From Naegleria gruberi (Eukaryota), in assembly GCA_000004985.1 (NCBI GenBank), contig GG738874.1: DNA of 64,000 nt; one strand, given 5' to 3'. The position numbers and the translations under genes were made by a program. The notes below the pieces were generated by a model that did no database searches, had not been told where the DNA came from, and saw nothing but the letters and a program-made list of their open reading frames with translations. Below, piece by piece: positions 1 to 62,409 of this stretch (position 1 is the stretch's first letter; every line of letters starts with the position of its first letter).

Positions 1-812
1 AGAAATGGCTCCACTCTGTTGTCATTGACATTAATGGAAATTTTGATCGTTTCATTACTGATATTCATCACCCGAATCATTCCTTGTTGTGTTTTAGTCC
101 AAGAGCTCTCAAATTTCACACTGAAAACAATGAAGCTGTTATCAAAAGATATCATCACAAGACAGGAGATCAATGGATTCATCCACAGCATGGTGTTTTA
201 TTCGAAGGAGGGTATTTAAGTAATTCTTCAGTTCTGTATCCTCCAGTTGAGTTATTTAATCCAACTGGATTTACTGTATTATTGAGGGCATTTGCTGAGT
301 CAACTGATAGAGGAGTAATAATCATGTTTGGACGAGGATACAGATGGTTTGGTATTGATCCATTTGGAATTAGTTTGAGCAATGGTGAAAAACATTTCGA
401 GTTTGCAAATCAATTGAAATTAAGACAGTGGAATGATGTGTGGGTTTCGTATAATAATGTACAATCTCCTGGCACATTTAATGAATCATGTCGTGTCTTT
501 ACTCACAAGAATTCGAATACAAAGAAGGAAATATTTTGCATTGTGAATGGAAATGAATACCAATTTGAAGTTCCAATCGATAATAGGGTTCTTTCTCTAA
601 CAGATAATTATTATATAGAAGATGAAATGGGAATGGAATTTATTGATTATTCATGTGCTAATTGCTTTACAGGGTTTTTCTCCAGTTTAGTTTTATTCAA
701 TCAAAGTTGTAATAGTTTTGATGACTTGAAATTGGTTGCCTCAAACTTTTTGGAAAATCATTCCAAACCAACTGAAACCTATCAAGAAGTATTAAAAGAT
801 AAATCCAACTAA
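1..812 (+). CDS. 5'-partial CDS with a ConA-like/LamG-like or pentraxin-like beta-sandwich domain; the reading frame stays open to the window edge (the ORF track starts at a TTG at 84 only because no ATG exists)
   Basis: Frame 3 has no stop from nt 3 to the TAA at 810-812. The translation (...VLFEGGYLSNSSVLYPPVELFNPTGFTVLLRAFAESTDRGVIIMFGRGYRWFGIDPFGISLSNGEKHFEFANQLKLRQWNDVWVSYNN...) has the alternating hydrophobic pattern of LamG/pentraxin sandwiches. The N-terminus lies upstream of the window. Confidence 0.45.
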   Translation, partial: KWLHSVVIDINGNFDRFITDIHHPNHSLLCFSPRALKFHTENNEAVIKRYHHKTGDQWIHPQHGVLFEGGYLSNSSVLYPPVELFNPTGFTVLLRAFAESTDRGVIIMFGRGYRWFGIDPFGISLSNGEKHFEFANQLKLRQWNDVWVSYNNVQSPGTFNESCRVFTHKNSNTKKEIFCIVNGNEYQFEVPIDNRVLSLTDNYYIEDEMGMEFIDYSCANCFTGFFSSLVLFNQSCNSFDDLKLVASNFLENHSKPTETYQEVLKDKSN

Positions 813-863
813 TCTTCCATTTTTATTTTAATAAAGACATTGAATTCATTGAAAGTAGATGAT

Positions 864-1352
864 TTACCAAAGTCCTTCCGAGTGGAATACCAGTAAAAAC
901 ACTCCACCAATTCCGTATGCATTAATTTCATATTCAGAACCTCCAATATGACATTCGTAATATCTATGATATCTGAAAGCTTGTAATCTTCCAACCTTTT
1001 CACATAATTTCTCTAATTTCTTCATCATTGGCTTATGTTCTTCCGGATAATTAAGTGCTTGACGGTCACTCATTGGTTTATCTTTTTTCATTCCTTCCAT
1101 CCGTGCAATTGTTTCAGTATTCAAAAGTTGTGGAACTTGATGCTGGGGATGACAATAAAGTCGAGTCTCAAGTTTTGACATGTAATCAACTGTTCGATAG
1201 CATGGATTCATCTGTTGAATACTCCACAAATAATTCATTAATTCATTGATTCGTATTGTGTGTAGTTGATGGGCTTGTTGTTGTCGGAATTTTCTAATCA
1301 AAAGTGGAGAAGATTGTAAATCATTGAAAATCAGAACAACACATGATGACAT
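864..1352 (-). CDS. hypothetical protein (162 aa), function not recognised
   Basis: ATG-initiated ORF on the minus strand with host-like codon usage, convergent with the upstream gene. No recognisable motif. Confidence 0.4.
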   Translation of the reverse strand: MSSCVVLIFNDLQSSPLLIRKFRQQQAHQLHTIRINELMNYLWSIQQMNPCYRTVDYMSKLETRLYCHPQHQVPQLLNTETIARMEGMKKDKPMSDRQALNYPEEHKPMMKKLEKLCEKVGRLQAFRYHRYYECHIGGSEYEINAYGIGGVFLLVFHSEGLW

Positions 1353-1442
1353 TTTTATGATCTTGTTTTAACTCTTTCGAAAACACAAAACGTTCAATTT
1401 TGACGCTTAAGAAAACAATTTCTTGAGAATCTTTATTTTTTA

Positions 1443-4400
1443 TTAAAGAATGAAAGAAATAAACAATAAGGCAATAGCCAAGATTAAATTGAAAAGAGGA
1501 GTAGTTAAAGGAGAGTTGTTAATTCTTGCTGATTGTTGGGGAATGGTGATTGAACTGGATACTGAAATCAGTTTTTCACAATTGGTTCCAATGAAACCAA
1601 TTGAACATTTGCATGTATCTGTTGAAATGCATTGACCATTTCCTGAACAAACATTTGAAGTATCATTTGACAATTTTCCATAACATTGAATGAGTTTACA
1701 TTCAGGCCCATACCAATCCTTATCACATTTGCACAAGTTAAAATCCATACATTGCCCATGTCCAGAACAAACATTTGGCGTGTCATTTGACAATTTTCCA
1801 AAACATTGAATGAGTTCACAATCAGGGCCATACCAATCCTTATTGCATTGACATGTATCTGTTGAAATACATTGACCATGTCCAGAACAAACATTTGAGG
1901 TATCTGACAATTTTCCAAAACATTGAATAAGTTTACAATCAGGGCCATACCAATCCTTATTGCATTGACATGTATCTGTTGAAATACATTGCCCATTTCC
2001 TGAACAAACATTTGACGTATCATTTGACAATTTTCCAAAACATTGAAATAGCTTACAATCAGGCCCATACCAATCCTTATCACATTTACACAAGTTAAAA
2101 TCCATACATTGCCCATGTCCAGAACAACCCGATGAATTAGAGATACCAAAGCAGATAGGAGTATTGCATGAAGAACCAACCCAAGTCGAATTACATTCAC
2201 ACAAATCTTTTCCGATACATTGACCATGAGAATTGCAAGTGAGTGGATCATTACTTTGAATTCCAAAACAAGAGAAGTATTCACAATTGGCTCCACTAAA
2301 ACCATTATCACAAGTACACTTTTCATAATCTAAACATTTACCCCTCGATTGACAAACAGCAGAATCATTACTTAACAAACCATTACATGTGGTAATGTTG
2401 CAAGTTTCTCCAATCCAACCAATTTCACATTCACACAAATTGACATCAACACAAGCACCTTGGGATGGTCCACCACAAGAATTATTACCAAACTTTCCAT
2501 AACAGATTGGTGTGCATATTAAGGAATTTTCACTCAGACGAAAACCATCTTCTTCACAGTATGGAACTGCCACCCTAACCAAGCCATTACGAAAGATACC
2601 AGTATCTGAATATATTAAATTTCCTTGTTCATCAATGAAGATAGAGTCTGGGCATGAAACAATAGTTTCATTTCCTTTCACATTGTCTCTCATCTCAAAA
2701 CCTGTCTGTCCATTACCAATAATTGTTGAGATATTTCCATCCAATGCTGAAATCTTTCTTATAGCATGGGCATCACAATCAGGAAAAATTACATCACCAA
2801 CTTTGGTTGTAATAACAGATGCAGGATTAATAATAGATGCCAAAAGAGCAGAACCACCATCTCCAGTTGATAGCACAATTCCATTTCCTGTAACAGCATG
2901 AATGATACCGTCTTTGCTTATTCTTCTAATTCTGTTATTTCCTATATCAGTGAAATAAATATCTCCATCCACACTCACTGTAATACCATATGGATTATTG
3001 AGTTTTGCCTTAATTGCCTCAATTTCATCATTGTTATAACCAGCATATATACCACCAGCAATAGTAGAAATAATTCCTGTATCATAAGAAATCTTTCTAA
3101 TATTATTAGCATAACAAGAATCTGTAAAATAAATGTCACCTCTCCATGATACTACCAATCTGTTTGGACATAAATAGGCTTCAGATGCCAATCCACCATC
3201 GCCCAAACCACCAGCTAGAGTACTAATAATTCCATTGGTAGATACTGTTCTGATATAAGCTCTGTCAATTATATATAAATCTCCATTTGGTCCAACCTTT
3301 GAGAATGATGGAACTACACTAGTCATGTTGGCAAGAACATCATTTTCGATATCAGTAGTATTTCCGTTTCCAGCAATAGTTGAAATAACACCATTAGAAA
3401 TCTTTCTTAATCTAGAATTATCTGAAATGTAAATGTCACCATTTTGATCTACTGAAACACTTGTTGGCTTATTGAGTTGTGCATCAGTTGCAAGAATATC
3501 ATCTCCATTGTAACCTTCAACTCCAGTACCACAAATAATTGAATTTTGTAAAGTGGAAAGTGTAATATTGTTCAAAGTGGAATCTGATAGTAATACTAAA
3601 AGATACAATCCATCATTTGTAAGTGCAACATCTAAAGGAGATGCTACATTTTGTACAATGTCAATTATGCCACTTGTCAAATTAACAACTCTAATTGCAT
3701 TATTACCATTACAAGCAACATATAACAATTCTTCATCAGAAGAGAAAGCCATACCATTAGGATTTGAAATTGCTGCCTCGATAGCATTACCTCCATCTCC
3801 ACTATAATCATCAACCCCAGTTCCACAAATTGTTGTGATATTTCCATTGAGTGATATCTTTTGAACTCGATGAGTATTTGTGGAAAAGTAAATTTCACCC
3901 ATCTTGCTAACAAGAACTCTAACTGGATTACCTATCATTGAATCAATAGCTCTTACGTTTTCTCCACTGTATCCTGCAACACCAGGTTTACCAGCAATGG
4001 TTGTTATAATTCCCAAAGTTGAAATCTTTCTAATACATGAGTTTAAACTGTCAGCAATAATCATTTCACTAGTGCTTGGTAAAAAGTCAATTCCAGTTGC
4101 TCTACTGATAACTGAATATTTGGCATTGTATCCATCACCTCCAAATTGACCATTGGTTCCAGCAACTCTTATCAATGTGCCATTCCAAAATAGTTTGTAA
4201 ATTGAATTACTGAATGAAACAAATAACTCTTTTGTAATTGGTGAAACGGAAAGTCCAATAATGCTCTGGATTGATTCGAGCGGATTAATAACGTTAGGGA
4301 CAATAGTAGAGTCATCTAGACGGTTACCGTTACCTGCAATAGTTGAAACAATTTGATTCTTGTCAACCTTTCTAATTCTGCAATCATGTGAAATATATGT

Positions 4401-5618
4401 AATGCCATCAATTGAAACAACTTGACTAATATAGCCCAAAGCTGCTTTTGATGCTGGCAACCCATCTCCTCCATATACATTTGTATTACCAATTACTGTT
4501 TCAATAATTCCAGTTTGTTTTGAAATTTTACGTATCTTCAAATTTCCAGTGTCAGTAACATAAACATCTCCATTTTTAGAAACTGAGATTCCTGTTGGAT
4601 AAGCAAATTTGGCATTGATTGCGGGACCACCATCACCATAATTACCACTATCCATACTTCCACCAATTGTAGAAATGTAACCGCTGCTATTGACCATTCT
4701 AATAACGTTATTATTATCAATAATGTATAATGTACCATCAGGAGTGGAAACGACACCAGTTGGAAAATTCAATGCTGCATTGGTTGCCAAGCCTCCATCA
4801 CCAGAGTATCCTACATCTCCATTACCTGCGATTGTTGAAATAATTGCAGTGCTGCCATCAATCTTTCTAATTCTATGATTAAGTGAATCACAAAAGTAAA
4901 TGTCACCATTAGTGGAATTGACAAATAATCCTGTTGGTGTGTTTATCCTGGCAGTGAGTGCTGGTCTATTATCACCTCCAAAATTATTGATACCATTACC
5001 ACAGATTGTTACAACTGCACCATTTGAGATCTTTCTAATTCTGTGATTATTCCTATCAGCAAAGATTACATCAGAATTTATCAAACCAATACCAAAAGGA
5101 CGTGAAACTTTTGATAACTTAGCTTGTCCATCATTAAATCCTGAAGAACCAGGAATGCCAGCAATTACACTTATCTTTCCACTCTTCATGTCAATTTTTC
5201 TCACCAAATCATTGTAATAATCTGAAAAGTAAATATCACCAGTTTCTTTTGATACTACAATGCCTCTAGGTTCATTAATTTGAGCAAGCAGAGCCAATTG
5301 ATTTGCGCCACCATCACTATAACTACCTGGTAATTCACCTGTACCAGCAATCGCTTTTATCACATTACCAGATGTTGCTTTAATGGTATTAGCATCTGTG
5401 AAAACTAGTTCATCTTGTTCATTGAAGAATAATGCCAAGGGACTGTCGAGGGAAAGAGATGTCAAGTTATAACCATCACCCAGTAAGTTTCCACCTGCAA
5501 ATGTACTGGTTGTGTATTTCACAGGTTTCAAGTTGACCGTTGTCTTGCACAACACCATGTTGTTGGTTAACAACAACAATATTAAACAAACAAAGACATT
5601 GAACCAGAGTGCTGTCAT
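1443..5618 (-). CDS. secreted, probably GPI-anchored surface protein with about 16-18 NHL-type beta-propeller repeats followed by about 9 tenascin-type EGF repeats (1391 aa, intronless)
   Basis: ATG at 5618. N-terminal signal peptide MTALWFNVFVCLILLLLTNNMVLC. Repeated ...GNG..GYSGDGG.A..A.LN.P.G...d..G.lYiaD..N..IRki blades (NHL/YD-like). C-terminal Cys-rich units C.G....d...C.G.G.C.....C.C...W.G..C...C (EGF). Ser-rich stalk plus terminal hydrophobic tail LFNLILAIALLFISFIL immediately before the stop, typical of a GPI signal. Confidence 0.8.
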   Translation of the reverse strand: MTALWFNVFVCLILLLLTNNMVLCKTTVNLKPVKYTTSTFAGGNLLGDGYNLTSLSLDSPLALFFNEQDELVFTDANTIKATSGNVIKAIAGTGELPGSYSDGGANQLALLAQINEPRGIVVSKETGDIYFSDYYNDLVRKIDMKSGKISVIAGIPGSSGFNDGQAKLSKVSRPFGIGLINSDVIFADRNNHRIRKISNGAVVTICGNGINNFGGDNRPALTARINTPTGLFVNSTNGDIYFCDSLNHRIRKIDGSTAIISTIAGNGDVGYSGDGGLATNAALNFPTGVVSTPDGTLYIIDNNNVIRMVNSSGYISTIGGSMDSGNYGDGGPAINAKFAYPTGISVSKNGDVYVTDTGNLKIRKISKQTGIIETVIGNTNVYGGDGLPASKAALGYISQVVSIDGITYISHDCRIRKVDKNQIVSTIAGNGNRLDDSTIVPNVINPLESIQSIIGLSVSPITKELFVSFSNSIYKLFWNGTLIRVAGTNGQFGGDGYNAKYSVISRATGIDFLPSTSEMIIADSLNSCIRKISTLGIITTIAGKPGVAGYSGENVRAIDSMIGNPVRVLVSKMGEIYFSTNTHRVQKISLNGNITTICGTGVDDYSGDGGNAIEAAISNPNGMAFSSDEELLYVACNGNNAIRVVNLTSGIIDIVQNVASPLDVALTNDGLYLLVLLSDSTLNNITLSTLQNSIICGTGVEGYNGDDILATDAQLNKPTSVSVDQNGDIYISDNSRLRKISNGVISTIAGNGNTTDIENDVLANMTSVVPSFSKVGPNGDLYIIDRAYIRTVSTNGIISTLAGGLGDGGLASEAYLCPNRLVVSWRGDIYFTDSCYANNIRKISYDTGIISTIAGGIYAGYNNDEIEAIKAKLNNPYGITVSVDGDIYFTDIGNNRIRRISKDGIIHAVTGNGIVLSTGDGGSALLASIINPASVITTKVGDVIFPDCDAHAIRKISALDGNISTIIGNGQTGFEMRDNVKGNETIVSCPDSIFIDEQGNLIYSDTGIFRNGLVRVAVPYCEEDGFRLSENSLICTPICYGKFGNNSCGGPSQGACVDVNLCECEIGWIGETCNITTCNGLLSNDSAVCQSRGKCLDYEKCTCDNGFSGANCEYFSCFGIQSNDPLTCNSHGQCIGKDLCECNSTWVGSSCNTPICFGISNSSGCSGHGQCMDFNLCKCDKDWYGPDCKLFQCFGKLSNDTSNVCSGNGQCISTDTCQCNKDWYGPDCKLIQCFGKLSDTSNVCSGHGQCISTDTCQCNKDWYGPDCELIQCFGKLSNDTPNVCSGHGQCMDFNLCKCDKDWYGPECKLIQCYGKLSNDTSNVCSGNGQCISTDTCKCSIGFIGTNCEKLISVSSSITIPQQSARINNSPLTTPLFNLILAIALLFISFIL
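1650..2160 (-). repeat. coding tandem repeat: 5-6 near-identical 123-bp (41-aa) EGF units inside the NHL/EGF gene
   Basis: The DNA unit ...ccaatccttatcacatttgcacaagttaaaatccatacattgcccatgtccagaacaaacatttg...caattttccaaaacattgaa... recurs head-to-tail with roughly 90% or higher nucleotide identity. It encodes CFGKLSNDTSNVCSG(N/H)GQCISTDTCQCNKDWYGPDCKLIQ. One copy lacks one codon (KLSDTSNV). Confidence 0.85.
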
Positions 5619-15901: not shown

Positions 15902-17199
15902 ATGCCCAATAATCAGCAGTTTAGAGCAATTCCTTCATCTTCATCACGAGCACTCGACATTTCTTCATCTACAGATCAAATACTTAACGGAGATTCGAAT
16001 AACAAGTTTCCAACAAGAGATTGTACCTCCTCAAACAGTACATCCACAACAACTGAAGATTATTCAGGGGAAGATGGTGCTGACTATCAATATGAAGATG
16101 GAGCTCTTCAAGAAGAAACAGAAGAAACTAATGGAGACGAAACTTATTCTAATCTTGATTTGAATACTGTCAAGTTATTTGTTGGACAAATTCCATACTC
16201 TTATGGTGAAGATAATTTATATCCATTATTTTCACAATTTGGTCCAGTTGCTGAAATTGTTGTGATTAGAGACAGATTTACATTCAAGTCAAGAGGATGT
16301 GCTTTCGTCTCATTTCGTAGTAAGCAAGATGCGGACACATGCATTAGAGAACTCAATCAAAGATTGAAACTGCCACCTGTAAGTATATTTGATATGTGAT
16401 AATTTTAACTTATTCGAATGGTTTCAATTGAACACCTTTTTTATTCGAAACTTAGTTAAATACCCCTCTCAGAGTTAAATATGCCTACACTGAGCAACAA
16501 TTAGATATTGTTAATGATAATTTTGTAAATAATGCTCCAAATCTAACTACTTCATCCTCGCCTAATGATTCCAATAGTGAAAAATCTCAAGATTTGACAA
16601 TTGCCTCAAATTTCCTCTCCTGTCTCAATATAGATAAGTATGAAATTGGCGTGCCTCATCCAGAAAACAAGCTCTTTATCAGAAATATTCCAAAGAATGT
16701 TACTGAAGATGAGCTCTCAACTCTATTCGAAAGTTTTGGCGAAATTCTTGACGTTGTCGTATTGAGAACGACCATTCATACTTCAAAGGGATGTGGTTTT
16801 ATCAAATTTACCAATTCAGAATCAGCTGATATGGTCATTAACACCTTCAAGAGAGAAATCATTTCACCAATTCAAGAATATCAACAAGGAGCTCAACAAG
16901 AAGGAACAACTATTGGTGGACCTTCTAATCAAAGATTGGTCGAGTTGACTAACAAGCTCCTAGAGAGTAGTTTCCTTATGAAGGGAGCTATCACTCCTCT
17001 ATTGGTTAGATATGCTGATAAGGATTATGTACCAAGTCAATCAACACAAGATGAACATGTCTATAATTCAACAACTACTGGTGGTCATGATTATCACTCT
17101 ACAAATGGAAATCATGGAGGTCATTACAATCCAAGAAGAAGGAAATCTTATCCATTGTCTTATCATAATAATAATAATAATAGAAGAGGATCCTATCAT
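15902..17199 (+). CDS. RNA-binding protein with at least 2 RRM domains (CELF/Bruno-like), 3'-truncated by the assembly gap; exon 1 15902..16378, intron 16379..16455, exon 2 16456 to the gap
   Basis: RRM1 is LFVGQIPYSYGEDNLYPLFSQFGPVAEIVVIRDRFTFKSRGCAFVSF (RNP2/RNP1). RRM2 is KLFIRNIPKNVTEDELSTLFESFGEILDVVVLRTTIHTSKGCGFIKF. PLRVKYAYTEQQ and PLLVRYADKD linkers resemble the ELAV/CELF 'VKFAD' motifs. The reading frame runs into the N run at 17200. Confidence 0.7.
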
Positions 17200-17991
17200 N
17201 NNNNNNNNNNNNNNNNNNNNNNNNNNNNNNNNNNNNNNNNNNNNNNNNNNNNNNNNNNNNNNNNNNNNNNNNNNNNNNNNNNNNNNNNNNNNNNNNNNNN
17301 NNNNNNNNNNNNNNNNNNNNNNNNNNNNNNNNNNNNNNNNNNNNNNNNNNNNNNNNNNNNNNNNNNNNNNNNNNNNNNNNNNNNNNNNNNNNNNNNNNNN
17401 NNNNNNNNNNNNNNNNNNNNNNNNNNNNNNNNNNNNNNNNNNNNNNNNNNNNNNNNNNNNNNNNNNNNNNNNNNNNNNNNNNNNNNNNNNNNNNNNNNNN
17501 NNNNNNNNNNNNNNNNNNNNNNNNNNNNNNNNNNNNNNNNNNNNNNNNNNNNNNNNNNNNNNNNNNNNNNNNNNNNNNNNNNNNNNNNNNNNNNNNNNNN
17601 NNNNNNNNNNNNNNNNNNNNNNNNNNNNNNNNNNNNNNNNNNNNNNNNNNNNNNNNNNNNNNNNNNNNNNNNNNNNNNNNNNNNNNNNNNNNNNNNNNNN
17701 NNNNNNNNNNNNNNNNNNNNNNNNNNNNNNNNNNNNNNNNNNNNNNNNNNNNNNNNNNNNNNNNNNNNNNNNNNNNNNNNNNNNNNNNNNNNNNNNNNNN
17801 NNNNNNNNNNNNNNNNNNNNNNNNNNNNNNNNNNNNNNNNNNNNNNNNNNNNNNNNNNNNNNNNNNNNNNNNNNNNNNNNNNNNNNNNNNNNNNNNNNNN
17901 NNNNNNNNNNNNNNNNNNNNNNNNNNNNNNNNNNNNNNNNNNNNNNNNNNNNNNNNNNNNNNNNNNNNNNNNNNNNNNNNNNNNNNNNNNN
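17200..17991. other. assembly gap (792 N); it truncates the 3' ends of two convergent genes
   Basis: Uninterrupted run of n characters from 17200 to 17991. Confidence 1.
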
Positions 17992-18464
17992 ATTTCATTT
18001 TCCGATTTCTTCTTGTATACCTTTGATGGAAGACCAATGACAGTTTCCTTTTCCTTATTCCACACTCTGAATTTGCTAAATACTTCTGGATTGCACAAAT
18101 CAGGCATTTGAAGCCCAATTCCTGATGTATATAATGCTCGCAGTGATTCCTTTTGCAATCTCAAGTTTGGTGTAAGTTTTGGATGTTTTTTATCAAATTC
18201 TTTATCGGAATGTTCCAAATATTTATCAATCAATTCAATCATTTCCTCCTCAGTACAACAAGTTTTCTTTACTCTAATATCTGCACCGAAAATTTGTTCG
18301 TGAATATAAAGATATCTCTTGAATGTTGGCACAACTTTAGTATCTCTGATTTGTTTTTGTTCCTTCTTTTTAAAGTCGTGAATACCCTGCTTCTTCATAT
18401 CGATAGCCTTTCGGGATTTTGGATGAACTGGTTTGGTGGTTGTGGCGTTTGCTCCTTTGGTCAT
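17992..18464 (-). CDS. TMA16: TMA16 (translation machinery-associated protein 16) homolog. The N-terminal ~158 aa are present; the C-terminus is lost in the gap
   Basis: ATG at 18464 gives MTKGANATTTKPVHPKSRKAIDMKKQGIHDFKKKEQKQI...CTEEEMIELIDKYLEHSDKEFDKK...GIGLQMPDLCNPEVFSKFRVWNKEKETVIGLPSK. This matches the TMA16 pattern (HP.SRKA...ELIERYL...G.GL.IPD..N...K.FREW) recalled from memory. The ORF runs into the gap. Confidence 0.55.
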
Positions 18465-18728
18465 TTTTTTTTTGAACTTCAAATAAAAAAATTTTCTTGT
18501 ATTTTTGATGATGAATTGTTATGCAAGCAAGAATTGCCTTCGGATTCGAGATGCTTTTCAATTTAGAGATGAATTTCTTTAATATTGGAGAGATGGATTG
18601 TTGTTGGAGGTGAGTGGAAGAGAAAATTATGCACTTGTCAATTTAATTTTGTTGTAAGAGGTTCAACAATGGAGAGAGTTAATAGCACTGTGTCGAGACA
18701 TTTTGTGATCAAAAAAGCTTTAAAAAAA

Positions 18729-58011: not shown

Positions 58012-61000
58012 ATGAGAACAAGTGCTGTAAAGAATGAGACATGGAATCGTGCAATGATTCCTCGCTCTCTACTAATGCTAAGTTTGATTTTACTTTGGAC
58101 TGTTGCCTTTGTCGAGTCAAAGAAACAACAAACCAAGCCAACTAAATTTGCCAAGATTGTTTGCCCACCTAATTCAAACCTCACTTACACGTTCAAAACC
58201 ACTTCCTTAATTGGAAATCGTGGTCTTGCTTCAAGTAAGAAGGGTTCTTCTGGAAATGTTGAAACTCAACTTTCTGGTGAATTGGTTTTAACTTGTCCAT
58301 CCAGAAAAACCAATGAAAAGTCAGGTCTCATTGATAAGAGTGCTAAGAATAAGAATGTTATTCTCCTCACTTTCAATCAAGTATCCTTCCTCCAATTTCA
58401 AGGTTCTTCAAAGGGTGTCAGTGGTAGAAAATATCGTCGTCTTTTAACTTCAAAAGATATGACCAAGAAAATGAACGAATTTCCAATGATTTTCATTCAA
58501 TCAAAGACTGGTCATATTCAAAAGATGGTTTTCAGACAATCTGAAACTCGTTATATTCGTTCTTTAAAGAAGGGTATTCTCAGATTATTCACTACTGAAA
58601 CTAGACGTCAATCTCGTTCTCAAACTGATGGTGTATTGGGCAAGTATCGTCAAAATTATCACAAGCAATTTAGACGTGGAGTTGTCTCTAAGAAACGTAA
58701 AGGATTGGCAATTTATCAAAAATTCACTCAAGATGATTTCATTTCATTCCTCCCTCCAAGTAAGAGACATTTACATTATGAAGGTGCTCATCTTGTTAGT
58801 GTTTCCTTGAAAAAGAAGGTGATTAGAAAGGCAGGTTTGAGATTGAAGGTCACTTTTGGTCCATCAAAGGAAGTTCACTATGCTTTTAAGGAATTTGAAA
58901 GAATTGCTCATTCAAAGATTAAGAAGGATGATTTAGTTGATAATGAATCCAAGTCAAATGAATTGGAAACTCTATTTGTTGGATCTGTAAAGCTCAAAAA
59001 GGCAGAAAAGACAAGTCAAGATTTGAAAGAAGAAATTGGACAAGTAATTATCAATTTGGAAAAGAATGGTCGTGATGCCAAGTTGGGTTCTCAATTCCAA
59101 TTTGAGAATTCTTTCATGACTAACAAGTATGATAAGAAAGCTATGAATCAAATCAATAGAAGACGTTTCTCTACTAAATTCTTCCGTCGTTTGCTTAATG
59201 CTGCCAAGACAGATCCATCCTTGTCAAGAAATGCTAATTCCTTACTTTCAGCTCTTGCCAAGTATAGCAAATTGCATCCAATCAAGTCTGCCAAGATTTT
59301 GTTAAATGAATTGAAGAAGGGTGTTGACAAGTTACTCAATTCAAATGACATGACAGAAAAGCAAAAGATTTCTCTCAAGAATTATTTGGAAAGCGTTCAA
59401 AACTTGGTTGCTACTATTAGATCTACTCCAATTCAAGAAAAACTTATCAAACTCTCTACTTTGCATCCATATTTGGCTAAAAATTACATTTACTCATCCG
59501 TAGTTGTTCCAACTCCACCAAAGTCTGCCTTCTCTTTCTTAAAGCTATTGAAATCAAAGGGCCTTAGCGCATTCTCTCGTAGAGGAAACAAAAAGTTCAA
59601 ATTCTCATCTCAAATGAATGAAGATGTCAAGAAGAACGCCTTCATGGCCTATGCTGACCTCGCTCACAGAATTAGAGATAACAGAGTTCAACAACATATT
59701 GTCAAGGAAATTCTTACCAAGATTTCTGCTTCAACCAATTTGAATGAACTCCAAACTTATATTCATGCTTTGAATAATGCTGGTAAAGGTGTTGATATTG
59801 AAATTATCAGATCATTCTTGACTGATAAGAGAATTCCAGACACTATTAAGGTTTTACTTGCTGACAATTTGAAGAAGCGTCAAACTGATGAAAGTGCTGT
59901 CGATAGTTTGATCAATTCATTGGTTGTTACTAAGGGTTTGAGCTCTGTTGTTAAGGCCTCTCTCATCAATGCTCAAACTGAAAGAGAAAAGCATCTCAAA
60001 TCGGGTGCTTCAGTTACCCACTTTTCTAAGGCCCATAAGAAGAATAAGAGCGAGGAAATTAGAACTGCTGTCAAGAATTACTTGTACACTGTTGGTACTA
60101 AACAATCAGGTGAACAACTTTCAAAGGCATTAAAGATCAAGAATAAGACCTCTAATGCTCTTGCTAAAAAGGTCAAGAAATTCCAATCCAGCATTGAATC
60201 CCGTGCTCTCCTTTCTCATGAAGATTTGACACTTTTAGAAGCCTTTGATGAAATGGAAAGAGCTCAAGTTTTGGGTATTGGAAGATTTTTCAGAAGATTG
60301 GGTTCCAGAATTAAGAGTGCTGCTAGAGCTGTTGGTGGTGCTGTCCGTAGAGCTGCAAGGGTTGTTGGTAGAGGTGTTGCAAGAGCTGCCAGAGCTGTAG
60401 GTAGAGCAGTTGTTACAGGTGCCAAAGCTGTTGCTAAGGGTGTTGTTAAAGCAGCCAATTGGGTCAAAGAAAAGGTTGAAGCAGCTATTAATGCTGTAAC
60501 GAATGTTGTCAATAAGATTAAGAGCTATTTCGGTCCTGCCACCTTTGCAAATCAACAAGCTTGCATCAAAGTTAGTGTTGACAGTGAAATGTGTTTGAGA
60601 GAATCAACATTCATTGAATTCATTAGAAAACAAGGTGACATGAGTACAATTAAGAAGGCCAAACATTTCAGTTTCGAAGCCCTAGTCGGATGTCAAAGTA
60701 TTAATGTTTACACTGGTTTCCTTGTCTATGCAGGTGCTTCATTCGAATGTAGTGCTGAAAATAGTGGAATTGATATTCTCTTGTTGGCTAAAGCCAAGTT
60801 AAATGCTAAGCTTTTCAGTAAGGAATTTGTTGTCATTGATGGTAGTGCTGAATTGACCAAGAGAGGTGAACAACCATTAACTGATAACATTTATCTCAAA
60901 GTTTTCCAAACTACATTTGTAAATGGTAACTTTGTTCCTGAAAAGATTAGAAAGGTCATTGATGCATGTTTCTCTGAAACTAAACCAATCTTTGAAAAGA

Positions 61001-62409
61001 GATTCCCAAAGCTTTTCAGTTACAATATCCAAATAATGGCTGGACCTATCCCAATATCCTTCAATTTTAATACTGCTTTAAACACAGGAGTTGAGTTGAA
61101 ATATGGTATCTGTCTTGCAAAATTGGAAGCCAGTTCTTCATTGGAGCCATACGTTTCATTGGAACTTACAGGTTCTGCCTCAGTTGGAGTGCCAGTTGCC
61201 AAAGCTGGAATCAAATTGACTGCAACCATTACTTACAGAATTATTCCACGTATTGCTTTTGAAAAGTGTAATTTGTGTGCCATGTTGCAACAACGTTTAG
61301 ATGGTGTGAAGTTTGATGTAGGTTTGTCTGCAACATTCATGAAATGGACAAAGAATTGGGATTTCTACTCAAAGCAAACAAAGCCATACGTCAAGACCTT
61401 ATTCGAAAAGTGTGTTAGCTCAACTGGATATAAGCCATCCAGCAACGATTCTCCTCTCCAATTTACTAACAAACGTGATTCAGAACAACCAGAAGCTGCT
61501 GCTTCTACCGATAGTAGTGCTCCAGAACAGAATCCACAAGGATACAATACTGAAGGTGCCCCAAGTACTAAGAATGTTGCTACTGAAGGTCCAAGTAAAT
61601 TGAGAAAGAAGGTTGGTAGTGCATTGTCAAAGAAGGCCACTTCCTATCAATCCATGTTTGGTCCAAATGCTGAAAAGATTGCAGTTTCTGGAGGTGCTCC
61701 ACCAAAACCAAGCAAGCAAACTTTGAGAAGTCCAGTCACCAGTCAAAGAGATGTTGTCTGGTCAACTGCATTCTTGAAGCAAAAGGTTCCAGCTGCAGCT
61801 ATTAAGGATCTAGGACTTGAAAAGTTGAGAAGACTTCCAAAGGAATACTTTGAGATTAAGAGTGAAGATAGAGCAAAGATTCCAAATGAAATTTTGCTTC
61901 TCCCACCTGCTGATTTCATTAAATTCCTTGGAAAATTACCAGATCGTTATCAAAAGTCAACTGAAACTGAAATACCAAGCAATGCATCTGTCAAGGTTTG
62001 GTCTTCTGAAGTTTTAGAAAAGCAAATTCCAAAGCAAATTTATAGTAAGGTTCCACTCAGATATTTGAGACACTTGTATCCTGATATTCTTCAAATCCGT
62101 AAACGTGTCATGTTACAAATCCCATCAACATCCTATACTCAAGGAAATAAGGGAATTGTCACTTGGGTCTGTAAAAATTATGGTGATTTGTGTAAGACTT
62201 TAGTTGAATCTATCAAGAAGAACGAAGAGGTTGACTATTCTGATTTGCTCAGTTTGATTCCAGCCGAACAACCAAAAGTTGTCTCCTCGAAATCATCACC
62301 AAAATCAAACAACTCAACTAAGGCAAGCAGAAATCCTAAAGGAAGAGATTATTTCTCAAGAGGAAGACCAGTTGAACTCGACATCGAATTCCATAGAATT
62401 AAACAATAG
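58012..62409 (+). CDS. secreted large lipid transfer protein-like (vitellogenin-N / apolipophorin-type N-terminal domain), 1465 aa, intronless, with an internal Ala/Arg/Val/Gly amphipathic repeat
   Basis: Signal peptide ...MIPRSLLMLSLILLWTVAFVES. N-terminal ...NLTYTFKTTSLIG...ELVLTCPS...NEFPMIFIQSKTGHIQKMVFRQSETRYIRSLKKGILRLFTTE matches the LLTP lipovitellin-N signature (E.P..F....G.i.......E....N.KRGI.S..Q). A helical middle then a C-terminal beta-rich region. The true start may be the second Met (MIPRS...). Confidence 0.6.
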   Translation: MRTSAVKNETWNRAMIPRSLLMLSLILLWTVAFVESKKQQTKPTKFAKIVCPPNSNLTYTFKTTSLIGNRGLASSKKGSSGNVETQLSGELVLTCPSRKTNEKSGLIDKSAKNKNVILLTFNQVSFLQFQGSSKGVSGRKYRRLLTSKDMTKKMNEFPMIFIQSKTGHIQKMVFRQSETRYIRSLKKGILRLFTTETRRQSRSQTDGVLGKYRQNYHKQFRRGVVSKKRKGLAIYQKFTQDDFISFLPPSKRHLHYEGAHLVSVSLKKKVIRKAGLRLKVTFGPSKEVHYAFKEFERIAHSKIKKDDLVDNESKSNELETLFVGSVKLKKAEKTSQDLKEEIGQVIINLEKNGRDAKLGSQFQFENSFMTNKYDKKAMNQINRRRFSTKFFRRLLNAAKTDPSLSRNANSLLSALAKYSKLHPIKSAKILLNELKKGVDKLLNSNDMTEKQKISLKNYLESVQNLVATIRSTPIQEKLIKLSTLHPYLAKNYIYSSVVVPTPPKSAFSFLKLLKSKGLSAFSRRGNKKFKFSSQMNEDVKKNAFMAYADLAHRIRDNRVQQHIVKEILTKISASTNLNELQTYIHALNNAGKGVDIEIIRSFLTDKRIPDTIKVLLADNLKKRQTDESAVDSLINSLVVTKGLSSVVKASLINAQTEREKHLKSGASVTHFSKAHKKNKSEEIRTAVKNYLYTVGTKQSGEQLSKALKIKNKTSNALAKKVKKFQSSIESRALLSHEDLTLLEAFDEMERAQVLGIGRFFRRLGSRIKSAARAVGGAVRRAARVVGRGVARAARAVGRAVVTGAKAVAKGVVKAANWVKEKVEAAINAVTNVVNKIKSYFGPATFANQQACIKVSVDSEMCLRESTFIEFIRKQGDMSTIKKAKHFSFEALVGCQSINVYTGFLVYAGASFECSAENSGIDILLLAKAKLNAKLFSKEFVVIDGSAELTKRGEQPLTDNIYLKVFQTTFVNGNFVPEKIRKVIDACFSETKPIFEKRFPKLFSYNIQIMAGPIPISFNFNTALNTGVELKYGICLAKLEASSSLEPYVSLELTGSASVGVPVAKAGIKLTATITYRIIPRIAFEKCNLCAMLQQRLDGVKFDVGLSATFMKWTKNWDFYSKQTKPYVKTLFEKCVSSTGYKPSSNDSPLQFTNKRDSEQPEAAASTDSSAPEQNPQGYNTEGAPSTKNVATEGPSKLRKKVGSALSKKATSYQSMFGPNAEKIAVSGGAPPKPSKQTLRSPVTSQRDVVWSTAFLKQKVPAAAIKDLGLEKLRRLPKEYFEIKSEDRAKIPNEILLLPPADFIKFLGKLPDRYQKSTETEIPSNASVKVWSSEVLEKQIPKQIYSKVPLRYLRHLYPDILQIRKRVMLQIPSTSYTQGNKGIVTWVCKNYGDLCKTLVESIKKNEEVDYSDLLSLIPAEQPKVVSSKSSPKSNNSTKASRNPKGRDYFSRGRPVELDIEFHRIKQ
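60295..60450 (+). repeat. coding imperfect repeat encoding an Ala/Arg/Val/Gly amphipathic segment (a GC-richer island within an AT-rich gene)
   Basis: gctgctagagctgttggtggtgctgtccgtagagctgcaagggttgttggtagaggtgttgcaagagctgccagagctgtaggtagagcagttgttacaggtgccaaagctgttgctaagggtgttgttaaagcagcc encodes AARAVGGAVRRAARVVGRGVARAARAVGRAVVTGAKAVAKGVVKAA. Confidence 0.8.

Follow-up and report, generated by a model that had tools for sequence, protein, structure and literature searches.

A large lipid transfer protein gene of Naegleria gruberi with an embedded cationic 11-residue repeat

The gene and the architecture of its product

The DNA analysed here, called the window, is a stretch of 64,000 nucleotides (nt) from contig GG738874.1 of Naegleria gruberi (assembly GCA_000004985.1), and the gene under study lies near its end on the plus strand. 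A preliminary description of the window had read the product as belonging to the superfamily of large lipid transfer proteins (LLTPs) and carrying an embedded amphipathic repeat encoded by a GC-richer island. The list of open reading frames (ORFs) gives a single ATG-to-stop frame at 58012..62409 (+), encoding 1465 amino acids (aa) plus a stop codon as an intronless coding sequence (CDS), exactly as that description had it. The CDS can be aligned over its full length with the N. fowleri and N. lovaniensis orthologs P0002-P0004 (retrieved proteins carry P numbers here). The closest proteins are P0001, with 99% identity, and proteins of N. fowleri and N. lovaniensis with 54%, 53%, 42% and 36%; among named genomes, the protein database gave no copy above 54% identity. 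These relatives place the window in Naegleria, and low GC content together with the distance from N. fowleri suggests the N. gruberi group. P0001 is encoded in the ENA metagenome ERZ929261 at position 227-4621 of the environmental contig k127_544650 (4.9 kb). The two copies differ by 14 synonymous and 10 nonsynonymous codons and by an indel of a single codon. All these changes fall outside the repeat tract described below, and the codon differences are too few for selection to be measured.

The product, here the window protein, scores below the gathering threshold of Pfam Vitellogenin_N (PF01347) while clear homologs score above it, so that its membership is transitive. Paralog P0005, to which it is 36% identical over aa 36-708 by BLASTP (E 4e-118), passes this threshold with E 1.1e-8 and 34.6 bits against a cutoff of 24, where residues 167-598 match profile positions 86-533; the matched region corresponds to the helical domain (aa 371-724) of the window protein. 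Among the distant relatives retrieved with the window-family profile and scanned with Pfam, the best score was that of P0019 from Percolomonas (57.6 bits), and P0016 (46.2), P0021 (38.9), P0040 (33.4) and P0013 (28.5) also exceeded the threshold. Apart from these, a family profile of 84 sequences (A3) was compared with PDB sequences and matched lamprey lipovitellin (1lsh_A, 8.2e-19, with profile positions 23-523 aligned to chain residues 2-530), human MTP (8eoj_B, 5.1e-18; 6i7s_G, 3e-16) and honey-bee vitellogenin (9enr_A, 9.2e-6). The alignments start at lipovitellin residue 2 and MTP residue 3 and span the barrel together with the helical module. A shallow profile of six Naegleria sequences (A1) found no match among PDB sequences, and only the 84-sequence profile reached the animal LLTPs.

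The preliminary description had rested its reading on a lipovitellin-like motif in the N-terminal part, and positions 58552-58590 do translate to YIRSLKKGILRLF. Residues K186, K187, G188, L190 and R191 of this motif are invariant in the Naegleria family, and the family consensus vvnvKkgiinalqtkl aligns with AVNIVRGILNLFQLSL / AVNIVRGILNLFQ of lipovitellin and AIENIKRGLASLFQTQL / IENIKRGLASLFQ of MTP. Besides, the conserved HALNNAGKG of the helical domain aligns with ALKALGNAGQ of lipovitellin.

The structural model from AlphaFold2 (AF2), with a predicted local distance difference test score (pLDDT) of 80.1 and a predicted template-modelling score (pTM) of 0.78, contains the N-terminal beta-barrel (N-sheet) followed by the alpha-helical superhelix, which is the fold of the LLTPs and bears out the lipovitellin-type barrel proposed earlier. 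The best 11 Foldseek matches of the model were all LLTPs (MTP 2.5e-25, with a target-normalised template-modelling (TM) score of 0.56; lipovitellin 1.7e-22) and the next match stood at 1.6e-3. The beta-barrel matched the apoB-100 beta-barrel 9bd8_A with E 4.4e-7 (target-normalised TM 0.46). An earlier model, for which 5 sequences had been aligned, was of poor quality (pLDDT 48), yet its top Foldseek ranks were already occupied by LLTPs only. Through the homologs above threshold, the family profile and the model, the assignment to the LLTP superfamily is supported, and we regard it as almost certain. Strictly speaking the protein is no vitellogenin, since the vWD, DUF1943 and polyserine regions are missing; Pfam scans of the window protein and of a set of its homologs gave no match for vWD, DUF1943/DUF1944 or the polyserine/phosphorylated region.

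The layout of the protein is given in Table 1. The N-terminal leader (aa ~15-34) is the sole strongly hydrophobic 19-residue stretch of the 1465 residues, is covered by an AF2 helix at aa 15-38 and recurs in the same kind in the orthologs and in nearly all full-length family members; judged by its hydropathy, the protein probably enters the secretory pathway. The C-terminus reads HRIKQ, and a KDEL/HDEL motif for retention in the endoplasmic reticulum was found neither in the window protein nor among the 76 family members of at least 650 aa that were checked. This absence is uninformative on any likeness to MTP, because it is also expected of MTP-alpha, which resides in the endoplasmic reticulum as an obligate heterodimer with PDI.

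The region between the long helix and the low-complexity linker was termed Cbeta. In the AF2 model it is an up-and-down meander whose strands reach 24 residues (pLDDT ~75-90), and it is placed where animal LLTPs have their lipid-binding sheets. Its conserved cysteines are C851, C861, C913, C986, C1034, C1086, C1089 and C1134, and four of these (C913, C986, C1034 and C1086) are kept in at least 90% of the 84 sequences. Cbeta is the most widely detected part among the 181 relatives described below. Searched against PDB sequences, a profile of Cbeta alone found no match, and neither did Pfam scans of the 22 members of that profile.

The C-terminal tail is conserved solely in the Naegleria/Willaertia clade and has neither a Pfam nor a PDB match. 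An internal duplication within it was considered and discarded as not significant, with a score of 42 against a shuffle mean of 24.9 (standard deviation 4.8, maximum 46). The protein as a whole is unusually basic, with 253 Lys+Arg against 128 Asp+Glu, and strong positive charge is also found outside the repeat tract, in the barrel (+40) and in the helical domain (+39).

Table 1. Features of the window protein and their positions in the window
Feature	Position	Strand	Residues	Remarks
Signal-peptide-like N-terminal region	58012..58119	+	aa 1-36	hydrophobic core ~aa 15-34, then conserved VESKK; hydropathy only
LLTP N-sheet beta-barrel domain	58144..59121	+	aa 45-370	AF2 strands aa 55-366, most blocks pLDDT 75-95
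Conserved LLTP motif	58552..58590	+	aa 181-193	YIRSLKKGILRLF; translation
LLTP alpha-helical (superhelical) domain	59122..60183	+	aa 371-724	~20 helices aa 372-724, mostly pLDDT >90 (AF2)
Acidic start of long helix	60217..60279	+	aa 736-756	SHEDLTLLEAFDEMERAQVLG; ends in conserved vLG cap; AF2 helix 736-785 starts here
Cationic 11-mer amphipathic tract	60280..60456	+	aa 757-815	GRFFRRLGSRIKS, then ARAVGGAVRRA, ARVVGRGVARA, ARAVGRAVVTG, AKAVAKGVVKA
Near-neutral continuation of 11-mer helix	60457..60528	+	aa 816-839	NWVKEKVEAAINAVTNVVNKIKSY; leads into C-terminal beta domain; in AF2 helix 794-839
C-terminal all-beta domain Cbeta	60529..61431	+	aa 840-1140	~13 strands, conserved cysteines
Ser/Pro/Thr/Ala-rich low-complexity linker	61432..61746	+	aa 1141-1245	composition; poorly conserved, length variable among orthologs
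C-terminal tail	61747..62406	+	aa 1246-1465	conserved VWS..L...P and YLRHL motifs

The cationic 11-residue repeat and its GC island

Between the helical domain and Cbeta runs a helix of ~100 residues (aa 736-839), whose central 59 residues (aa 757-815) form four to five 11-residue repeats with a charge of +16 and no acidic residue. The repeat had been placed at nt 60295-60450, and this segment is in frame and yields RLGSRIKSAARAVGG...AKGVVK; the peptide quoted with it (AARAVGG...VVKAA) is encoded a few codons away, at nt 60319-60456. Its claimed amphipathic nature withstood the statistics and the helical wheel alike. The lag-11 identity of the tract is 0.458, matched by none of 5000 shuffles, and its hydrophobic moment peaks at 98 degrees, the angle of an 11/3 helix, which none of 2000 shuffles matched. 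All the best 18-residue hydrophobic-moment windows of the whole protein fall within aa 755-800, that is, in the tract, and for aa 757-839 (83 residues) a moment of 0.43 at 98.18 degrees (11/3) compares with 0.355 at 100 degrees.

From aa 771 onwards the register reads ARAVGGAVRRA / ARVVGRGVARA / ARAVGRAVVTG / AKAVAKGVVKA / ANWVKEKVEAA / INAVTNVVNKI. On the 11/3 wheel Val occupies repeat positions 4 and 8 in all six repeats with Ala and Gly on the flanks, and positions 2, 6 and 10 are mostly Arg or Lys in the four cationic repeats. The register and the Val pair thus continue into the near-neutral aa 816-839, a segment conserved in all family members aligned, in which N827 and K837 are invariant even in the paralogs that have no tract.

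The DNA beneath the tract does stand out in guanine-cytosine (GC) content, with 0.46-0.48 in 200-nt windows at ~60200-60500 against ~0.33-0.40 in the rest of the gene, but the codons, which had been described as unlike those around them, are not unlike the rest of the gene. GCT, AGA, GTT and GGT are the favoured Ala, Arg, Val and Gly codons throughout. GC is raised at the first and second codon positions (GC1 0.63 against 0.42, GC2 0.68 against 0.37) and lower at the third (GC3 0.17 against 0.31), and the GC expected from the amino-acid composition and the gene's own codon usage (0.53) exceeds the value observed (0.49). The GC island is therefore a by-product of protein composition. The lower GC3 and the unchanged codon preferences rule out a foreign or distinct codon usage, and a recent tandem repeat at the DNA level is likewise ruled out, as only weak 9-12-nt signals were found.

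The family in unicellular eukaryotes and its relation to known systems

The preliminary description had held that an LLTP in a protist-like genome would be phylogenetically notable and had proposed a search for orthologs. An exhaustive HMMER search with the Naegleria profile recovered 181 cluster representatives, 95 of them at E<=1e-10 and most of them MTP-sized, from several protist groups and a chytrid. Named members belong to Heterolobosea (Naegleria, Willaertia, Percolomonas and Pharyngomonas), Metamonada (Anaeramoeba), Amoebozoa (Pelomyxa and Protostelium), the chytrid fungus Phlyctochytrium and the unclassified eukaryote isolates TZLM1-RC and TZLM3-RCL. A second, word-indexed homolog search returned only Naegleria proteins already known, and a third one of this kind added only unrelated HEAT-repeat and NACHT proteins. 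The occurrence of LLTPs in these groups suggests that the superfamily originated before animals. A 2025 paper on the honey-bee vitellogenin structure presents LLTPs as the circulatory lipid transport of animals and links their emergence to multicellularity (PMC12214520).

Some of these proteins already carry automatic names. Automatic annotation, for several of them in UniRef, labels N. fowleri FDP41_004846, FDP41_013614 and FDP41_013485, N. lovaniensis C9374_013309, Anaeramoeba ignava M0811_05850 and Percolomonas A0A7S1KP53 as 'Vitellogenin domain-containing', and Pelomyxa schiedti KAH3763393.1 is named 'lipid transport family protein'; the labelled proteins are orthologs or paralogs of this gene, with 36-54% identity within Naegleria. 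Our literature search, whose coverage left out most subscription-journal papers, retrieved no paper that deals with LLTPs or vitellogenin-domain proteins in protists, Naegleria included, with Cbeta or with the cationic tract, and a review of lipid transfer proteins in Entamoeba does not cover LLTPs. The orthologs of the pathogen N. fowleri (FDP41_004846 and its paralogs) are secreted-type proteins with no described function, and Cbeta is widespread yet has no Pfam family.

A cationic tract of the same periodicity stands just before Cbeta in N. fowleri, N. lovaniensis, Willaertia, Percolomonas and many other eukaryote sequences, while its sequence diverges. The equivalent tract was located at the same position in P0002-4, P0007, P0009, P0011, P0013-15, P0017, P0019, P0033, P0038 and P0048. 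Orthologs and distant members alike retain the motif LLSHEDL and the vLG-FFRR cap, and a tract with a similar vLG-FFRR start persists in relatives whose identity to the window protein is only ~20-30%. Judged by charge, 23 of the 103 members with sufficient upstream sequence have the tract, and the full-length carriers are all long forms.

Two observations concern the surroundings of family members. In the 2207-aa relative P0037, from a Logan contig, Cbeta is followed by Laminin_G_3 and several EGF and teneurin-type EGF domains, an architecture which suggests an extracellular and perhaps adhesive setting for some of the family. Besides, at 1820-2921 of N. fowleri VFQX01000019.1 a gene with a CRAL_TRIO lipid-binding domain is situated two genes upstream of P0005, which may be a coincidence.

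Among known LLTPs, MTP-alpha (6I7S, 8EOJ) is the closest in size and domain order. Identity to it is only ~9-12%, Cbeta has no sequence match to the lipid-binding domain of MTP, and neither the cationic 11-mer helix nor the 325-aa tail finds a counterpart in MTP. In comparison with vitellogenin and lipovitellin (1LSH, 9ENR), the window protein is without vWD, DUF1943, phosvitin/polyserine and CTCK regions, and its host is no egg-laying animal; the charged insert is here polycationic, helical and placed before the beta domain, whereas that of vitellogenin is a polyserine loop within the A-sheet. ApoB-100 and apolipophorin II/I are far larger, and the window protein is not known to form particles. 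It has one short cationic helix where in those proteins zwitterionic amphipathic helices and beta-strands extend over hundreds of residues. The window protein differs from all described LLTPs by three features: a cationic 11-mer helix that is conserved, a Cbeta domain without annotation and a tail specific to its clade.

The likeness of the tract to apolipoprotein helices, which had been suggested earlier, holds for its periodicity and fails for its charge pattern and for homology. With exchangeable apolipoproteins, alpha-synuclein and perilipins (including Plin4) it shares the 11-residue periodicity and the 11/3 geometry; its narrow hydrophobic face of small residues (Val, Ala, Gly) resembles the synuclein/perilipin type, and its length of ~60-85 residues is comparable to that of the synuclein and Plin3 helices (PMC5889406). 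In contrast to these helices it has a far higher net charge, no acidic residues and no detected Pfam homology, the Pfam apolipoprotein, perilipin and synuclein families giving no match to the window protein. It is moreover embedded in a folded LLTP, whereas those helices form free-standing exchangeable proteins.

Proposed function, alternative readings and other features of the window

Taken together, we consider it rather probable that the window protein is a secretory-pathway LLTP-type lipid-binding or lipid-transfer protein, the cationic 11/3 helix of which docks on anionic lipid surfaces. The body would bind lipid and the tract would attach it to membranes. In solution the tract would be disordered or loosely helical. 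Its helix has a narrow stripe of Val/Ala, shoulders of Gly/Ala and a face of Arg/Lys, and it might fold flat on anionic lipid surfaces such as the membranes of ingested bacteria, the luminal or plasma membranes of the amoeba, or lipid particles. Docking of this kind would keep the lipid-binding body at the surface, where lipid could be extracted, carried away or delivered. This mechanism is modelled on the 11-mer lipid-binding helices of apolipoproteins, synucleins and perilipins, in which 11-mer repeats form 3-11 helices whose folding depends on lipid contact (PMC5889406).

Several observations weigh against this picture. Searched alone, the window protein gave no Vitellogenin_N, DUF1943 or vWD match by hmmscan even at E<=10, so that this check, proposed with the preliminary description, failed for the single sequence; only noise (PsbU, Pannexin_like, NPA) was reported, and its NCBIfam and PDB sequence searches also returned noise only. 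At the level of detection, the sequence of Cbeta is unlike the lipid-binding sheets of MTP and lipovitellin and unlike every Pfam family. AF2 draws two helices (aa 736-785 and 794-839) and shows the tract as helical at pLDDT <50. The tract does not have the charge pattern of class A apolipoprotein helices, Asp and Glu being absent from aa 757-815, and its a-d-e-h-like Val/Ala pattern is also compatible with a hendecad coiled coil. The short paralogs P0005 and P0006 and the relatives of 700-850 aa, i.e. most short forms, are without the tract, which is therefore dispensable for the core function.

As the tract combines a charge of +16, the absence of acidic residues and a high hydrophobic moment, all properties of helical antimicrobial peptides, it may be read instead as an antimicrobial or membrane-lytic module, with the LLTP as its precursor or carrier and the helix killing or permeabilising bacterial prey, either in place or after release by proteolysis. 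Naegleria feeds on bacteria, the leader is of secretory type by hydropathy, and three of the protein's eight RxxR motifs fall in the tract, which makes up 4.8% of the length. One article reports antibacterial roles for animal vitellogenins (PMC7949091). The ortholog P0004 matches the CAP18_C domain, which binds lipopolysaccharide, but with E 0.071 and 13.5 bits against a cutoff of 20.5 the match is sub-threshold. Against this reading, no furin/kexin-type RX[KR]R site occurs in the entire protein, the RxxR motifs being generic ones, and no conserved dibasic sites flank the tract. The 11-mer register also runs unbroken into the conserved neutral helix before Cbeta, which suggests an integral structural element and not an excisable peptide. 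With its narrow Val/Ala hydrophobic face and low mean hydrophobicity (0.16-0.21) the tract is further unlike typical lytic peptides, and we judge this reading improbable. The Val/Ala pattern bears on another proposal, in which the tract forms no lipid-binding helix but a hendecad coiled coil, or a helical hairpin within one molecule, that either serves to oligomerise the protein or keeps the helical domain and Cbeta apart as a rigid spacer. Hendecad coiled-coil cores are formed by the a-d-e-h positions, and with repeat position 4 taken as a, these are Val (a), Ala/Gly (d), Val (e) and Ala (h). The break between the two AF2 helices is compatible with a hairpin and the acidic aa 736-756 could pair with the basic part. 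Within the tract itself, however, the +16 charge finds no acidic partner, so that homo-oligomeric packing is electrostatically unfavourable, and the pLDDT below 50 means that no stable packing is predicted. Repeat number and sequence vary widely among orthologs and paralogs lack the tract altogether, which is unusual for a structural core, and this explanation is in our view quite unlikely.

The extreme density of basic charge, in a protein with about two basic residues for every acidic one, would also suit a tract that binds a soluble or surface polyanion instead of lipid, such as sulfated glycans, polyphosphate, nucleic acid or cyst-wall and bacterial cell-wall polymers, or one that serves as a receptor-binding basic cluster. 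Basic clusters of apoB and apoE bind heparin and members of the low-density lipoprotein receptor (LDLR) family, and the complex of the apoB barrel with LDLR (9bd8_A) figures among the structural matches. Simple polyanion binding does not, however, require a strict amphipathic period of 11 residues in which two positions are invariably Val, and no receptor or glycan-binding domain was found in the Pfam scan of the window protein; such a role is very unlikely. Hardly credible is the view that the tract is a functionless low-complexity linker arisen by repeat expansion, with the GC island as its mark. Its sequence and length are indeed poorly conserved, some paralogs do without it and the rise in GC is a composition effect only. 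Its position, the 98-100 degree peak, the lag of 11, the cationic character and the vLG-FFRR cap persist nonetheless at ~20-30% identity, and this persistence in distant relatives, together with the weakness of any DNA repeat signal, indicates that the periodicity has been kept by selection and does not stem from recent slippage.

Naegleria makes the role of LLTPs in a single cell experimentally approachable, and the conserved 11/3 helix offers a simple, testable handle on membrane targeting. A wider view, which we put forward as doubtful, is that LLTPs are an ancient secreted lipid-handling family, possibly as old as the last eukaryotic common ancestor, and no animal invention tied to multicellularity. 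The heterolobosean LLTP body, fused to an apolipoprotein-style 11/3 helix and an undescribed cysteine-bearing beta domain, might then constitute a unicellular lipoprotein-like or lipid-harvesting system that, for example, strips lipid from the membranes of prey bacteria. If true, this system would either be a forerunner in function of the apoB-type lipoproteins or resemble them by convergence.

Scans of the whole window for tRNAs and with Rfam found nothing. At ~17200-18000 the GC content is 0.000, which reflects a run of N at an assembly gap, and the overlapping ORFs on both strands at 16594-18482 are an artefact of this gap. On the minus strand, an ORF of 1391 aa at 1443-5618 opens with a signal-peptide-like segment and continues with many NHL-like repeats ('...IRKIS/D...') and then some ten EGF-like cysteine repeats, up to a hydrophobic C-terminus. 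A 120-bp tandem DNA repeat at 1612-2127 (4.2 copies, 83% matches) encodes the EGF-like part.

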